DNA from: Escherichia phage ID2 Moscow/ID/2001
Length of the DNA stretch: 5,486 nt
Sequence record: NC_007817.1
Strand: one strand, 5' to 3'
Under the pieces are notes generated by a model, which saw nothing but the letters and a program-made list of their open reading frames with translations, was not told where the DNA came from and searched no databases. Positions within the stretch are counted from its first letter, which is position 1. Each line of letters starts with the position of its first letter. The position numbers and the translations under genes were made by a program. Of this stretch, positions 1 through 5,486 are shown piece by piece.

Positions 1-3
1 ACC

Positions 4-33
4 TTGACATAACCATAACTACATATCTATCAT
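4..33 (+). promoter_or_regulatory. Candidate sigma70 promoter P_A for gene A
   Basis: Perfect -35 TTGACA at 4-9, 18-nt spacer, -10-like TATCAT at 28-33. Predicted TSS near 40, upstream of the GGAGG SD (48-52) and ATG 62. Confidence 0.35.
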
Positions 34-61
34 GCCTCCAAATCATCGGAGGCTTTCTTAC

Positions 62-1723
62 ATGCAACAAGCTAGTGACTTCTACAACAAACCACATATC
101 GACGCTATCAAACCACTCGTTGAAACCGCTGGTATGTCTGTGCTTTCTCAATCTCCAAACCTCCGTATCTGGAAACAGGTAAATTCCCGTATCAAACTAT
201 TGGAAGAAATCCTTGCTCATTACACCAATGGCATCCGCCGTGATGACAACGGCGACTTCTGGATGAATCCCAATTCTCAACTCGCAACCACAATTGCCTA
301 TCGTGCCCATCAAAAAGGACACAACCCAAAACTCATTCAATACCCTGATACATTCACTCTGGATGACATCATCCGTAAAAAGCCATTACCACAAAACGCT
401 CCTGACGAATTAAAACTCTCCGATGAAATCGGGGAAGACTATCGCCTTACAATCATCTCTCTAATCGAAGAAATGCAAGAAATCTACGACGTGCTCGGAC
501 AACTTGATATTAATAACACTATAGACCACAAACCTATCGGTAACGCCCACTGGAATCTACTCTATGAAAAACCTGTATATAAACACTGGTATGAACTGGT
601 ATCAAAACGACCCCTTAAATCAATCAGAGACGACTACAACTATGCAAAGGCTAAGGGTATTAAGGATGAATGCTCGAAAATCCTTGAGGAATCCACCATG
701 AAATCACGTAGAGGCTTTACCGTACAAAGACTAATGAATGCTATGCGCACTGCCCACACTGAGGGCTGGTACGTTGTATTCGATACTCTTACTCTCGCCG
801 ATGACCGCCTTAAGGATTTCTATGATAATCCCAATGCTCTCCGTGACTATTTCCGTGATATTGGTCGTATGGTTCTCACTGCCGAGGGTCGTTCTGTCCA
901 TGATTCATCTTCGGACTGCTATCAGTATTTTTGTGTGCCTGAGTATGGCACCCAGCACGGCCGTTTACATTTTCACGCAGTGCACCTTATGCGCACACTT
1001 CCTCTGGGTTCTATCGACCCTAACTTTGGCAAGCTGGTGCGTACTAATCGGCAAATAAATAGCTTGCAAAATACATGGCCCTATGGTTACTCTATGCCCA
1101 TCGCGGTCCGGTACTCCCAAGACGCATTTTCGCGCGCTGGCTGGCTCTGGCCCGTTGATACAAAGGGCGAACCTCTTAAAGCTACCTCGTATATGGCTGT
1201 CGGCTTCTACGTCGCTAAATACGTTAACAAAAAATCAGATATTGACATGGCCTCTAAAGGTCTAGGGAATAAAGAATGGAACAATTCACTCAAAACCAAA
1301 ATCAACCTGCTGCCCAAGAAAATTTTTCGCATCAGGATGTCTCGCAACTTCGGAATGAAGCTGCACACAATGAGTCACCTCTCAGCGGAAACTCTAATCC
1401 AACTGACCCAAGTGGGCTACGACGTGACCCCGTTCAACAACATCTTGAAGCAGAACGCCAAGAAAGAGCTACGATTGAGGCTGGCAAAGAAATCTGTCGC
1501 CGACGTTTTGGAGGCGCAACCTGTGACGACCAATCTGCTAAAATTCATGCGCAATTTGACCCGTCAAATCGGAGTGTCCAACCTGCAGAGTTTTATCGCT
1601 TCAATGACAACGAAATTAACAAGTATGGATATTTCTGATGAAACCAAAAACTACGTTGATACTGCAGGAATTACTGCTACTCACTTACGAATTAAATCGA
1701 AGTGGACTGCTGGTGGAAAATGA
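62..1723 (+). CDS. A: Replication initiation protein A (HUH rolling-circle endonuclease). Start at ATG 62 preferred; the longest ORF begins at ATG 32.
   Basis: ORF 32..1723 (563 aa). It carries the HUH motif HFHAV (H at 968-970 and 974-976) and the catalytic tyrosine pair in YVAKYVNK (Y codons 1208-1210 and 1220-1222), both as in phiX174 gpA from memory. The C-terminal ~340 aa align closely with phiX174 A. ATG 62 has a GGAGG Shine-Dalgarno at 48-52 with 9-nt spacing; ATG 32 has no recognisable SD. Confidence 0.85.
500..529 (+). other. Viral (+) strand origin of rolling-circle replication, conserved 30-nt gpA recognition/nick site
   Basis: CAACTTGATATTAATAACACTATAGACCAC at 500-529 is, from memory, identical to the phiX174 30-nt origin. 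The expected gpA nick is between G506 and A507. It lies inside gene A, as in phiX174. Confidence 0.85.
698..1723 (+). CDS. A*: A* protein, in-frame internal initiation within gene A
   Basis: In-frame ATG at 698 begins MKSRRGF, the same residues that begin phiX174 A* as I recall it. GAGGA SD at 686-690 with 7-nt spacing. Product 341 aa, sharing the A stop. Confidence 0.6.
1276..1638 (+). CDS. B: Internal scaffolding protein B, overprinted inside gene A in another frame
   Basis: 120-aa ORF, the same length as phiX174 B. Shares the conserved C-terminal block [10 protein letters not shown]...QPAEFYRF...GYF with phiX174 B from memory. AGGGA SD at 1264-1268, 7 nt upstream of the ATG. Confidence 0.9.
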
Positions 1724-1808
1724 AGAAATTCAATCTGAACTTAAAAAATTCGAGAAGCTCTTACTTCGCCACCTTTCGCCATCACCTGAACGTACTGGCA
1801 AAGACTGA
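1638..1808 (+). CDS. K: Protein K, small ORF spanning the A/C junction in the third frame
   Basis: Not in the ORF track (56 aa). ATG 1638 overlaps the B stop as TGATG. Hand translation: [56 protein letters not shown], stop TGA 1806-1808. Same length and similar sequence to phiX174 K as I recall it (..[25 protein letters not shown]..). Confidence 0.7.
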
Positions 1809-1974
1809 CGCTCTCGACGAGGAAAAATACCTAAATATGCTAGGTGCTCTCCTCAAGGACTGGTTCCGTTACGAAGAACATTTCGTACATGGTAAACAAT
1901 CAATGCTTGACTTATTAAATGAACGTGGACTATTATCCACATCAACAACCAACCCAAAAGGAAATACAAAATGA
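1720..1974 (+). CDS. C: Protein C (switch from dsDNA replication to ssDNA synthesis and packaging)
   Basis: ATG 1720 overlaps the A stop as ATGA. 84 aa beginning [21 protein letters not shown], close to phiX174 C ([21 protein letters not shown]) from memory. The track ORF 1702..1974 starts at an upstream GTG; the ATG at 1720 is the homologous start. Confidence 0.85.
1907..1936 (+). promoter_or_regulatory. Candidate sigma70 promoter P_D, inside gene C upstream of D
   Basis: -35 TTGACT at 1907-1912, 18-nt spacer, -10 TATTAT at 1931-1936. Predicted TSS near 1943, about 28 nt before the D ATG, similar to the leader length I recall for phiX174 P_D. Confidence 0.4.
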
Positions 1975-2426
1975 ACTCTAACGAATCTGCTGTTGCCTTC
2001 GCTACTGCTCTCGCATCTATCAAGCTCATTCAGGCTTCATCTGTGCTGGACCTGACCGAAGACGACTTCGATTTCTTAACCCGTGACCGTGTATGGATTG
2101 CCACTGACCGCTCCCGTGCTCGCCGCGCTATTGAGGCCTGCGTATATGGTACATTGGACTTTGTCGGATACCCTCGCTTTCCTGCTCCTGTTGAGTTTAT
2201 TGCTGCCGTCATTGCTTATTATGTTCATCCCGTTAACATCCAGACAGCATGTCTTATTATGGAAGGCGCCGAGTTCACCGAAAATATTATCAATGGTATT
2301 GACCAGCCAGTTAAGGCCGCTGAACTATTCGCTTTTACCCTGCGTGTACGCGCCGGAAACACTGACCATGTTACACATGCAGAAACTAACGTACGTGAAC
2401 AATTACGTGCTCAAGGAGTAATGTAA
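1971..2426 (+). CDS. D: External scaffolding protein D
   Basis: 151-aa ORF (phiX174 D is about 152 aa). ATG overlaps the C stop as ATGA at 1971-1974. AAGGA SD at 1958-1962 with 8-nt spacing. Position and size fit the canonical gene order. Confidence 0.92.
   Translation: MNSNESAVAFATALASIKLIQASSVLDLTEDDFDFLTRDRVWIATDRSRARRAIEACVYGTLDFVGYPRFPAPVEFIAAVIAYYVHPVNIQTACLIMEGAEFTENIINGIDQPVKAAELFAFTLRVRAGNTDHVTHAETNVREQLRAQGVM
2146..2421 (+). CDS. E: Lysis protein E (MraY inhibitor), overprinted in the +1 frame of D
   Basis: Internal ATG 2146 of track ORF 2083..2421 gives 91 aa: MVHWTLSDTLAFLLLLSLLLPSLLIMFIP... The N-terminal transmembrane segment is nearly identical to phiX174 E (MVRWTLWDTLAFLLLLSLLLPSLLIMFIP) from memory, including Pro21. 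GAGG SD at 2133-2136 with 9-nt spacing. Confidence 0.85.
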   Translation: MVHWTLSDTLAFLLLLSLLLPSLLIMFIPLTSRQHVLLWKAPSSPKILSMVLTSQLRPLNYSLLPCVYAPETLTMLHMQKLTYVNNYVLKE

Positions 2427-2506
2427 TGGCTAAAGGCTCTCGTCGGCGTTCGCCGTCCCGCTCTAAAGGTGCTCGCCTCTGGTATGTTGGCGGCACACAA
2501 TTCTAA
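2426..2506 (+). CDS. J: Small basic DNA-binding/packaging protein J
   Basis: Not in the ORF track (26 aa). ATG 2426 overlaps the D stop as TAATG. Hand translation: MAKGSRRRSPSRSKGARLWYVGGTQF, stop TAA 2504-2506. Strong AAGGAG SD at 2413-2418 with 7-nt spacing. Highly basic, with the ARLWYVGGTQF C-terminus I recall from G4-type J. Confidence 0.85.
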   Translation: MAKGSRRRSPSRSKGARLWYVGGTQF

Positions 2507-2512
2507 TCTTCT

Positions 2513-2528
2513 AGGGGCTTCGGCCCCT
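2513..2528 (+). terminator. GC-rich hairpin with UUCG tetraloop in the J-F spacer; candidate partial terminator T_J or mRNA stabiliser
   Basis: AGGGGC-TTCG-GCCCCT: 6-bp GC stem with a TTCG loop, 7 nt after the J stop. Followed by CTATTT, which is only weakly U-rich. phiX174 has a leaky terminator at this position. Confidence 0.45.
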
Positions 2529-2545
2529 CTATTTAAGGATATAAA

Positions 2546-3829
2546 ATGTCTAACGTTCAAACTTCCGCTGACCGCATTCCTAACGACCTTTCTCACCTCG
2601 TCTTCGAGGCTGGTAAAATCGGCCGTTTAAAAACTATCTCCTGGACTCCAGTTGTCGCTGGCGACTCATTTGAAACTGAGATGGTAGGCGCTATTCGCCT
2701 TTCTCCACTCCGTCGCGGCCTTGCCGTCGACTCTCGCGTGGATATCTTCTCTTTCTATATTCCGCATCGTCATATCTATGGTCAAGAATTCATTGAATTC
2801 ATGAAAGCTGGCGTTAATGCCACTCCTCTCGCACCTGTTACTACTGCCTCTGGCTGGGATGCTTCTGCCTATCTTGGCACTATTCCATCCTCAAACCTCA
2901 AGGTTCCTAAATTCTTACATCAAGGATACCTTAATATTTACAACAACTACTTTAAGCCACCGTGGGATGCTGACCTTACATACGCTAACCCATCTAACAT
3001 GCCTGAACAGGATTATAAATGGGGCGTTCGTGTCGCTAACTTAAAATCTATCTGGACCGCCCCCTTACCTCCTAACTCTAAAACATCAGAGACTATGACC
3101 ACTGGCGCTACGTCTATTGATATTATGGGCCTGCAAGCTGCTTATGCTAAATTGCACACCCAACAAGAACGTGACTACTTCATGACTCGCTATCGCGATA
3201 TTATGAAAGACTTCGGAGGTCACACCTCCTATGACGGTGATAACCGTCCTCTGCTGCTTATGCGCTCTGAATTTTGGGCCTCTGGCTATGACGTCGACGG
3301 TACTGACCAATCCTCTTTAGGTCAGTTCTCCGGTCGCGTCCAACAAACATTCAATCACAAAGTACCTCGCTTCTATGTACCTGAACACGGCGTCATTATG
3401 ACTCTCGCCGTTACTCGCTTCCCTCCTACTCATGAAATGGAGATGCACTATCTTGTCGGTAAAGAATCTTTAACCTATACCGACCTCGCCTGCGACCCTG
3501 CTCTTATGGCTAACCTGCCTCCGCGCGAAGTATCCCTTAAGGAATTCTTCCACTCCTCGCCGGACTCCGCTAAGTTCAAAATTGCCGAGGGCCAATGGTA
3601 TCGCACGCAGCCTGACCGCGTCGCATTCCCTTATAACGCACTTGACGGCTTTCCTTTCTACTCTGCTCTGCCGTCTACTGACTTAAAACAACGTGTCCTA
3701 GTTAACACTGATAACTACGACGAAATCTTTCAGTCTATGCAACTCGCACACTGGAATATGCAAACTAAATTTAATACTACCGTCTATAGACATATGCCTA
3801 CGACTCGTGATTCAATCATGACGTCATAA
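2546..3829 (+). CDS. F: Major capsid protein F
   Basis: 427-aa ORF, the same length as phiX174 F. The N-terminus MSNVQTSADRIPNDLSHLVFEAGKIGRLKTISWTPVVAGDSFE matches G4/phiX F from memory. AAGGA SD at 2535-2539 with 6-nt spacing. Confidence 0.95.
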   Translation: MSNVQTSADRIPNDLSHLVFEAGKIGRLKTISWTPVVAGDSFETEMVGAIRLSPLRRGLAVDSRVDIFSFYIPHRHIYGQEFIEFMKAGVNATPLAPVTTASGWDASAYLGTIPSSNLKVPKFLHQGYLNIYNNYFKPPWDADLTYANPSNMPEQDYKWGVRVANLKSIWTAPLPPNSKTSETMTTGATSIDIMGLQAAYAKLHTQQERDYFMTRYRDIMKDFGGHTSYDGDNRPLLLMRSEFWASGYDVDGTDQSSLGQFSGRVQQTFNHKVPRFYVPEHGVIMTLAVTRFPPTHEMEMHYLVGKESLTYTDLACDPALMANLPPREVSLKEFFHSSPDSAKFKIAEGQWYRTQPDRVAFPYNALDGFPFYSALPSTDLKQRVLVNTDNYDEIFQSMQLAHWNMQTKFNTTVYRHMPTTRDSIMTS

Positions 3830-3840
3830 AGCCTATAACG

Positions 3841-3878
3841 TGACAGGGGGAAAAATTTTAATTTTTCGCCCCCTGTCA
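3841..3878 (+). repeat. Extended inverted repeat/hairpin in the F-G intergenic spacer; candidate complementary-strand origin and/or T_F terminator
   Basis: TGACAGGGGG (3841-3850) is the perfect reverse complement of CCCCCTGTCA (3869-3878). The 18-nt AT-rich interior (AAAAATTTTAATTTTTCG) can itself pair AAAAATT with AATTTTT. It is the only long perfect stem in the window and sits in the 99-nt F-G spacer. Confidence 0.6.
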
Positions 3879-3928
3879 GGTTGAACAAGCGCAAGCGCGT
3901 TAGCTGCCTAACTTAAAAGGAAATTCAA

Positions 3929-4468
3929 ATGTTTCAGAAATTCATCAAAAAACATAACGCTCCGTTAACTTCTCAGCCCGCTATCTCTAAGGCTGTTACT
4001 CCATCTATGACCGCCGCCCCTCTTGTCACTACACCTCTCGGCGTGTCTTCTACTCAATTATTCTTGGAACTTACAACCACTGCCGCCGCTGGCGGCTTCG
4101 CTTACGCTATCCGCGTAGACAATTCTAACCCTACTGATAATCAGGTCTTCTCCGTCTGTGCTCACATCACATCTGACGTGGACCCTAAATATATTGCGTG
4201 CCTCGTTCGCTTTGAGGTCACTGCTGGTACCACTCCTACCGCTATGCCTCCTGTCTATGATGCTTACCCTATCGCTGGTTACTATGACGCTGGCTCTTAT
4301 ACTGTTGAAGACTGCGCTACTATTCCTACTCACGCTGTCTCTTCTGGCAACGATGTATATGTCGGCCTTATGCTTTTCTCTCGCATGTGGCCCGTTGCAA
4401 AACTATCCGGTATCGCTTCCCTTAATCAGGTAAACAAGGAAGTAACCGTTCTCCAACCTCTTAAATAA
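3929..4468 (+). CDS. G: Major spike protein G
   Basis: 179-aa ORF in the canonical position after F (phiX174 G is about 175 aa). AAGGA SD at 3917-3921 with 7-nt spacing. Ser/Thr/Ala-rich composition typical of the beta-barrel spike protein. Confidence 0.9.
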
Positions 4469-4478
4469 GGTATTCTCT

Positions 4479-5486
4479 ATGTTTGGTGCAATCGCTGGCG
4501 GTATCGCCTCATCTCTTGCTGGCGGACTCATCAACAAAGCCTTTGGGGGCGGTCAATCCGCCTCCTCTACTGGCGTTCAAGGTGATGTCCTCGCTTCTGA
4601 CAATAACGTAATCGGTGCTAATGATGCTGGTATCAAATCCGCTATTCAAGGCTCTAATCCACCCAATGGCCAACAAGCTGCTCCCAATGCTATTTCGGGC
4701 GTTCTCGCTGACACTGGCAAAGACGCCCTATCTTCAATCACTGGCGCTGGCGTTAATAAACTTATGGAAAAAATCGGACTATCTAAAACTGCTGCTGATA
4801 AAGGCAAGGACACAAAGGATTATCTTGCTTCTGCATTCCCCGACCTCAACCCGTGGGAACGTGCTGGCGCTGGTGCTTCGTCTGCTGGCATGGTTGACGC
4901 TGGCTTCCAAAACCAAAAAGAATTAACCCGCATGCAGCTTGACAATCAAAAAGAAATCGCTAAGATGCAAAACGACACACAAAAGGATATCGCTGGTATC
5001 CAATCTGTCACATCCCGGCAAAATACTAAGGATGCTGTCTATGCTCAAAACGAGATGCTCGAATATAACCAAAAAGAATCTATGTCACGCGTTGGCTCTA
5101 TTCTCGAAAACACAAGCCTCACCAAACAACAACAAACTTCTGAAATTATGCGGCAGATGCTTACTCAAGCTCAAACCGCAGGTCAACATTTTACAAATGA
5201 CCAAATCAAAGAACTTACACGAAAAGTTGGTGCTGATATTGATTCTGTCCGCGCTAACACTGACCGTACACATGTAGAAACTCAACGCTCAAAACAGGAA
5301 GTTCAAAACTCTCGTTATGCTTCCTCACAAGTCGGTAAAACCGCTAAGGATGTCTCTAATGCAGTTACTGATACAGCTAGTTCTATTGTTGATTATTTTC
5401 GTGGTATTGATAACAAAGTGGCAGACGCTTATAACAACTATTTCAAAGATGGTAAATCCGACGGAATCGGGTCGAACATCAAATAA
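4479..5486 (+). CDS. H: Minor spike / DNA pilot protein H
   Basis: 335-aa ORF (phiX174 H is about 328 aa). Gly-rich hydrophobic N-terminus [25 protein letters not shown] followed by a long Gln/Lys-rich, coiled-coil-like region. TAAGG SD at 4466-4470 overlaps the G stop. The ORF stops on the last base of the window. Confidence 0.9.

Follow-up and report, generated by a model that had tools for sequence, protein, structure and literature searches.

A complete Gequatrovirus talmos genome with a phiX174-like hairpin in the spacer where phage G4 carries its complementary-strand origin

The stretch of DNA analyzed here, 5,486 nucleotides (nt) in length and hereafter called the window (sequence record NC_007817.1), is almost certainly the complete, circularly closed, single-stranded DNA (ssDNA) genome of Escherichia phage ID2 Moscow/ID/2001, a member of the species Gequatrovirus talmos. 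The sequence is written as the packaged (+) strand and is cut directly 3′ of the stop codon of gene H. It carries the full gene set of the Bullavirinae (A, A*, B, K, C, D, E, J, F, G, and H) on one strand, with B, K, and E overprinted. An original prediction made from the letters of the sequence had listed eleven canonical genes that share one orientation and the canonical order, and indeed their coordinates match those of annotated relatives, with ten products exceeding Pfam cut-offs. The tight packing described there is reflected in a non-coding content of only 209 nt (3.8%). The largest part of our attention is given to one of these spacers, which separates genes F and G (nucleotides 3830 to 3928, 99 nt) and contains a long hairpin homologous to the complementary (-) strand origin of phage phiX174, in a genome whose proteins mostly resemble those of phage G4.

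The identity of the window was established by a megablast search of 50,697 phage records, by exact look-up of its proteins, and by a scan of IMG/VR for sequence patterns. The search matched 569 Bullavirinae records, 374 of which align with the window over at least 80% of its length, and all best matches are Bullavirinae of the genus Gequatrovirus, as expected for the comparison with Microviridae references that had been proposed as a check. The highest-ranking records are FL76 and FL68 (97.7% identity over 100% of the length), both of which are 5,486 nt long with the same gene coordinates, followed by ID204 (96.2% over 91%) and then by WA14/ID18 and the G4 group (about 85% over 87 to 91%). The IMG/VR entry UViG 638275835 (5,486 nt) is identical to the window, and the predicted F, G, and H proteins are exactly gpF, gpG, and gpH of ID2 (YP_512376, YP_512377, and YP_512378). 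Nothing differs between ID2 and the window, and no points against this identification were found.

NCBI taxonomy places ID2 in the species Gequatrovirus talmos, within a higher group that is the subfamily Bullavirinae in the older taxonomy and the family Eubullaviridae in the 2026 NCBI taxonomy. Species membership was judged by about 95% nucleotide identity to accepted members and by grouping with Gequatrovirus in core-protein trees. FL76 and FL68 are also classified as G. talmos, and their 97.7% identity to the window exceeds the species level. The exact ID2 proteins and the position of the window in a tree of A, D, F, and H lead to the same assignment. In this neighbor-joining tree, ID2, FL76, and ID204 form the sister group of G4 and ID52. 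Whole-genome nucleotide identity to the window declines from FL76 (97.6%) through ID204 (91.5%), ID18 (81.8%), G4 (79.5%), PJNS002 (74.7%), and Lilledu (73.5%) to phiX174 (63.9%). Thus, the placement of this genome nearer to G4 than to phiX174 stands, and eight of the ten proteins compared are also closer to their G4 counterparts. The three cues that had been offered for this placement likewise hold: J is short (26 amino acids (aa), compared with 25 in G4 and 38 in phiX174), A is long (553 aa, compared with 554 in G4 and 513 in phiX174), and the amino terminus of F is nearly identical to that of G4. The label "G4-like" is apt for the genome overall, but not for all of its parts. The putative complementary-strand origin in the F-G spacer follows phiX174, the G protein is about equidistant from both phages, the E protein is closer to that of phiX174, and the species is talmos rather than G4.

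In G4 (NC_001420), the F-G spacer is 136 nt long and includes the complementary-strand origin with an RNA primer annotated at nucleotides 3970 to 3997, whereas the 99-nt spacer of the window does not align with it. An origin of the G4 type (G4oric), which depends on primase and SSB only, is formed by three stem-loops, where stem-loop I is followed by a CTG at which DnaG starts the primer, and this arrangement is absent from the window. Searches with blastn-short and with motifs revealed no homologue of G4oric or of the alpha3 spacer anywhere in the window, and returned only chance matches of 8 to 15 nt. A CTG at nucleotides 3905 to 3907, which follows a small GCGC hairpin, was considered as a G4-like primase start and was rejected, given that ID204 and ID18 have CTA at this location.

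The spacer instead contains the long hairpin on the + strand, spanning nucleotides 3837 to 3882, whose assignment is based on BLAST, folding, and covariation. Nucleotides 3834 to 3903 of the window align with nucleotides 2305 to 2371 of phiX174 at 77 to 79% identity in approximately 95 phiX174 records, and nucleotides 2308 to 2351 of phiX174 are labeled "Complementary (-) Strand Origin of Replication" in the curated record MN385565.1. When folded as DNA, the hairpin has a predicted free energy of -16.6 kcal/mol (z = -5.65). Across seven genomes and 19 base-pairs, 98.5% of cells are paired and compensatory changes occur in nine of the 19 pairs, whereas control alignments in which the pairing partners were slid give only 37 to 61% pairing. 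The loop core AAATTTTAATTT is invariant and the AAC/GTT base of the stem is conserved. Immediately 3′ of the hairpin on the + strand, nucleotides 3883 to 3903 (GAACAAGCGCAAGCGCGTTAG) constitute a flank that is nearly invariant among the seven genomes and is common to phiX174, with the pattern GAACAAGCG(C)AAGCGCGTTAG.

According to reviews, gene G of phiX174 is preceded by a fork-like hairpin, the primosome assembly site (pas), where PriA, PriB, PriC, and DnaT load DnaB (PMC5778457; PMC9865509). The window likewise carries, on the viral strand and before gene G, a homologue of this hairpin, for which a length of about 44 nt is expected. The loop core is identical in the two phages and the 3′ flank is conserved, whereas the stems differ by compensatory changes. 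From a spacer that is devoid of a G4 origin and that has homology to the primosome assembly hairpin of phiX174 (a site recognized by PriA, also called protein n′), we infer that ID2 would prime its complementary strand by the phiX174 route, using a PriA-PriB-DnaT-DnaB/DnaC-DnaG primosome, and not by the G4 route.

Several points weigh against this interpretation. No experiment on PriA-dependent priming in ID2 was found in the searchable literature, and the stem sequence differs from that of phiX174, with conservation limited to the loop core, the stem base, and the 3′ flank. The hairpin also sits where the transcription terminator TF is expected. Moreover, a role in DNA and one in RNA cannot be told apart by covariation in this case, because the packaged strand is of the same sense as the mRNA. 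In one alternative, the hairpin serves only as the intrinsic terminator TF, and ID2 has a complementary-strand origin of a different kind or at a different location. An intrinsic terminator has been described for the F-G spacer of phiX174, the hairpin is the only strong structure in the F-G spacer of the window, and the covariation fits an RNA hairpin equally well. However, no run of T nucleotides follows the hairpin, and a terminator scan did not call it. The homologous segment of phiX174 is annotated as the (-) origin and is described as the primosome recognition hairpin. Furthermore, an A/T-rich loop core and a 21-nt 3′ flank that remain invariant across genomes that are only about 64% identical overall exceed what a terminator needs, and no G4oric-like or other origin candidate was found elsewhere in the window. 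An exclusive terminator function is therefore unlikely. The hairpin probably doubles as TF, and a dual role as origin and terminator is the likely one.

A second alternative is that the window represents a recombinant, in which the F-G spacer and gene G entered a G4-like backbone jointly from a phiX174-like donor. The spacer does align with that of phiX174 and not with that of G4, and gene G encodes a divergent version of the major spike protein. In tblastn searches, the G protein of the window matches FL76 and FL68 at 98%, next PJNS002 at 57.5%, and then the phiX174 group at about 48%. Pairwise global alignments give 41% identity to ID204, 44% to G4, and 47.5% to both ID18 and phiX174, and identities computed over alignment columns are 61% for PJNS002, 52% for phiX174, 50% for ID18, and 44 to 46% for ID204 and G4. 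PJNS002 is by either tblastn or column identity the source of the nearest G protein outside the species talmos. In a tree of G, ID2 and FL76 group with PJNS002 and phiX174, whereas ID204, whose G protein is only 44% identical despite its membership in the same species, groups with ID18 and G4. In a sliding comparison with ID204, nucleotide identity falls from about 100% to about 45% over precisely the G gene and is regained in H.

The location of this drop argues against a joint import. Identity to ID204 remains at 98 to 100% through the hairpin and breaks only near nucleotide 3915, so the exchanged block corresponds to G alone. The pas-type spacer is also present in ID204, ID18, an uncultured IMG/VR relative, SECphi17/Lilledu, and PJNS002, and the spacer of lillemer matches as well. 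In addition, no G donor closer than 61% is known. We consider the joint import of spacer and spike gene to be quite improbable. The position of the break 3′ of the hairpin suggests that the spike gene alone was exchanged, with putative breakpoints near nucleotides 3915 and 4470. By these sequence comparisons, two G cassettes circulate within one species, ID204 having the other cassette, in agreement with Olsen et al., who remark that gpG shows almost no similarity among gequatroviruses (PMC7552041).

The presumptive pas of the window belongs to a spacer type that is widely distributed. It is found in phiX174, PJNS002, SECphi17/Lille, ID18/WA14, the IMG/VR relative IMGVR_UViG_3300045988_000056, and all talmos genomes, and the lillemer spacer matches it too. 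The IMG/VR relative (5,580 nt) is an uncultured, ID18-like phage with about 82% identity to the window. G4oric is present in 365 phage records, all of which are at least 90% identical and of the G4/ID11/WA5/NC19/NC6 type, and those listed include none of the talmos or ID18 type. ID52 carries G4oric as well. Among the genomes compared, it is confined to the G4/ID52 subclade and to alpha3, where it lies in the G-H spacer. The G-H spacer of alpha3 (nucleotides 4960 to 5094) carries a close copy of G4 stem-loop I and its CTG (GGAAGGCGTTAGCCGCCTTCCCTCCTGC versus GGACGGCGAAAGCCGCCGTCCCTACTGC), and the same origin module thus resides in different spacers in the G4 and alpha3 clades.

SECphi17, the Danish "Lille" phages, and Salmonella phage PJNS002 are unclassified Bullavirinae with a whole-genome identity to the window of only 73 to 75%, and the F genes that flank their spacers are 55 to 67% identical to F of the window. 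The F-G spacers of SECphi17/Lille nonetheless are 97 to 98% identical to that of the window over 92 nt (nucleotides 3830 to 3921 of the window versus 3755 to 3845 of L010 and 3497 to 3587 of L011, our designations for representatives of these phages). Such a near-identical spacer beside a divergent F gene points either to very strong constraint or to horizontal spread.

When the two origin types are mapped onto the core-protein tree, pas looks ancestral, because G4/ID52 is the only gequatrovirus lineage among those compared that lacks it, and G4oric appears to be a derived state that replaced it in a single subclade. We tentatively raise the possibility that "G4-like" phages are dimorphic in how second-strand synthesis starts, with G4/ID52 using the primase-only route, and with ID2/talmos, ID18/WA14, SECphi17/Lille, PJNS002, and the IMG/VR relative using the PriA type. 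If this were true, G4oric would be derived and probably horizontally acquired, and ID2 would be a natural near-isogenic partner of G4 for the comparison of two priming routes. No statement of such a dimorphism was found in the searchable literature, which excludes Rokyta et al. 2006, where it may be made, and we claim no novelty for it. That paper is reportedly the first description of ID2. In any event, the tacit assumption that a phage that is G4-like by protein similarity also has the primase-only origin of G4 requires correction. If the homology is interpreted correctly, a phiX174-like dependence on the PriA primosome should be expected when talmos-, ID18-, or SECphi17-type phages serve as "G4" models in studies of replication, host-factor dependence, or defense systems.

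The genome of ID2 is both complete and circular, as had been proposed from the appearance of the window as a linearized circle of this size. An independently assembled Logan contig, SRR11772951_842 (5,516 nt), carries a 30-nt terminal direct repeat and closes to a circular unit of 5,486 nt that is 98.58% identical to the window. The junction between nucleotides 5486 and 1 of the window lies about 2 kilobases (kb) inside this contig, which comes from an uncultured relative of ID2 (98.6% identity when rounded). A 500-nt probe that spans the junction aligns in one piece, at 72 to 73%, inside the genomes of lillemer, PJNS002, and SECphi17, all three of which are linearized elsewhere. The closest records represent circular genomes of 5,486 nt that are opened at the same position as the window, and records of relatives in the style of Rokyta share this start and end point, with the H stop codon supplying the last base. 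Both ends agree with the original prediction: TAA of gene H forms the last three bases of the window, and gene A was said to begin 30 to 60 nt from the start, where we find that the first in-frame ATG is preceded by 31 nt and the annotated start by 61 nt. The window has no terminal repeat and no host flank, and nothing is missing from the genome. Its size accords with the 5.4- to 6.1-kb circles of the Bullavirinae, a comparison of size and circularity wherein the strandedness of virion DNA cannot be read from the sequence.

It is vanishingly improbable that the window derives from a larger replicon, such as a prophage or an integrated element, or from phiX174 sequencing-control contamination, the latter being known to affect public records. 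Both sources were ruled out, as no evidence for either was found, identity to phiX174 is only 63.9%, an independent assembly closes at exactly 5,486 nt, and the records of relatives describe cultured lytic phages with circular genomes. As for such contaminated records, Mycolicibacterium phage J1 (MZ417522.1, 24,953 nt) and Protaetiibacter phage SSC1 (MT947439.1, 5,386 nt) contain the phiX174 F-G spacer at nucleotides 924 to 990 and 4769 to 4835, respectively, and look like phiX174 sequencing-control contamination or mislabeled phiX174. The window itself is an already known and ordinary genome of a textbook phage family, present in GenBank/RefSeq and IMG/VR since the mid-2000s, and the earlier description of a well-characterized family rather than a novel system is borne out. 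ID2 has also been used in experimental evolution, for example in swaps of gene F with ID12 (cited in PMC4627924). Although the identification matters little in itself, the check settles the identity, completeness, and circularity of the sequence.

In contrast to the complementary-strand origin, the viral (+) strand origin is common to the window, G4, and phiX174. The 30-nt A-protein recognition and nicking sequence CAACTTGATATTAATAACACTATAGACCAC is located at nucleotides 500 to 529 on the + strand as an exact match with zero mismatches. No occurrence is expected by chance, and the sequence is identical in nine of nine genomes compared. In phiX174 (NC_001422), the same sequence starts at nucleotide 4299 and the replication origin is annotated at 4306, from which the nick in ID2 is predicted to fall between G506 and A507. 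The location of the 30-nt sequence inside gene A, whose product carries HUH and two-tyrosine motifs, is the arrangement expected for the Bullavirinae.

These elements can be placed in a proposed life cycle, the steps of which follow the cycle established for phiX174 and G4 and the sequence elements of which were checked in the window. By analogy, H would pilot the ssDNA into Escherichia coli, and host enzymes would then synthesize the complementary strand from the structured site in the F-G spacer. A PriA primosome start at the F-G hairpin would be the one step unlike that of G4. Host RNA polymerase would transcribe every gene in the rightward direction from promoters that precede A, B, and D, and hairpins in the four spacers would act as leaky terminators. 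The A protein, acting as an HUH, two-tyrosine nuclease, would nick the (+) origin at 500 to 529 to initiate rolling-circle replication. Procapsids would be formed from F and G pentamers scaffolded by B and D, C would switch the process from replication to packaging, and J would condense the DNA. Finally, E would block MraY and thereby cause cell lysis.

Some of the transcription signals needed for this cycle can be recognized in the small spacers. phiX174 has a terminator in the H-A spacer and intrinsic terminators in the J-F and F-G spacers (bioRxiv 10.1101/2020.03.05.979765). The H-A spacer of the window (nucleotides 1 to 61, + strand) contains a promoter-like site, a hairpin, and the ribosome-binding site of gene A. 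The strong promoter-like site (4 to 33, + strand) was detected by a promoter scan with 11 of 12 matches and is composed of TTGACA (4 to 9) and TATCAT (28 to 33) separated by an 18-nt spacer. The hairpin (34 to 53, + strand), which is followed by TTTCTT, is a terminator-like match at the position of phiX174 terminator TH, a role suggested by position, and the ribosome-binding site is read as GGAGG at 48 to 52 on the + strand. Approximately 35 nt upstream of D, a second promoter-like site (1907 to 1936, + strand; TTGACT, 18-nt spacer, TATTAT; 10 of 12 matches) may correspond by position to promoter PD. The J-F spacer contains a GC hairpin that reads AGGGGC-TTCG-GCCCCT (2513 to 2528) and is followed by CTATTT (feature 2513 to 2534, + strand), which presumably occupies the position of terminator TJ. 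A simple terminator scan of the window returned two sites, compared with 4.7 expected, and the spacer hairpins were instead read directly. When the entire window was compared with Rfam at E ≤ 1, only two chance snoRNA-like matches were obtained, both far below gathering scores.

Genes were called from a six-frame list of open reading frames (ORFs) and from the annotation of the nearest records, FL76 and ID204, and all lie on the + strand. The ten distinct products match their own Pfam families above curated cut-offs, with E values ranging from 2e-13 (Microvir_lysis) to 3e-162 (Phage_F), well outside what chance would give. Start and stop codons, ribosome-binding sites, and junction overlaps of the ATGA, TGATG, and TAATG types are all present. 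The same eleven genes and order are found in G4, where A, B, C, D, F, and H are 82 to 91% identical to those of the window, and in phiX174 (Sinsheimervirus). Protein identities to G4 and phiX174, respectively, are 89% and 63% for A, 82% and 57% for B, 90% and 65% for C, 91% and 65% for F, and 85% and 67% for H.

Gene A (62 to 1723; PF05840, E = 9e-59) encodes the rolling-circle replication initiator, which is also 100% identical to that of FL76. Its motifs are HFHAVH (HUH; 968 to 985) and YVAKYVNK (two-tyrosine; 1208 to 1231). The start at ATG 62 is annotated in FL76 and ID204 and has GGAGG 9 nt upstream. The frame is open already at ATG 32, ten codons further upstream, where no ribosome-binding site is present. 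This extension (32 to 61) shares nucleotides with both the hairpin at 34 to 53 and the -10 element of the upstream promoter-like site, and ATG 32 is probably not used. Gene A* (698 to 1723) begins at an in-frame internal ATG after GAGG, and the same coordinates are annotated in FL76, ID204, and G4.

Gene B (1276 to 1638; PF02304, E = 4e-47) is overprinted in A and encodes the 120-aa internal scaffolding protein. Gene K (1638 to 1808; PF12283, E = 7e-18) encodes 56 aa in the window and in other relatives, whereas K of ID204 (1638 to 1790) is truncated to 50 aa. The start of gene C (1720 to 1974; PF12025, E = 6e-37), whose 84-aa product functions in DNA maturation, overlaps the A stop codon as ATGA. 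Gene D (1971 to 2426; PF02925, E = 2e-84) encodes the 151-aa external scaffolding protein, and gene G (3929 to 4468; PF02306, E = 5e-48) encodes the 179-aa major spike protein, both of which are absent from gokushoviruses.

Overprinted in D is gene E (2146 to 2421; PF04517, E = 2e-13) for the 91-aa lysis protein, which is 100% identical to E of FL76 and retains a transmembrane segment with Pro21. It is 66% identical to E of phiX174, with P21 kept in the window, compared with 55% for E of G4. The G4 reference E gene (2154 to 2444) has a different and longer carboxyl terminus. Gene J (2426 to 2506; PF04726, E = 4e-14) encodes the DNA-binding packaging protein, and no D-J spacer precedes it, whereas in G4 these genes are separated by 42 nt. 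The major capsid protein F (427 aa) is encoded at 2546 to 3829 (PF02305, E = 3e-162), and the DNA pilot and minor spike protein H (335 aa) is encoded at 4479 to 5486 (PF04687, E = 2e-137).

FL76 differs from the window at 130 positions, mostly in gene F. About 90 of these differences lie within 2601 to 3800, with the highest density at 2700 to 2900, where the window and ID204 are also 11 to 17% different, and F is the fastest-diverging core gene within the species talmos. The mechanical ORF list also includes extra ORFs of 90 to 112 aa that overlap the known genes, lying either in other reading frames or on the minus strand.

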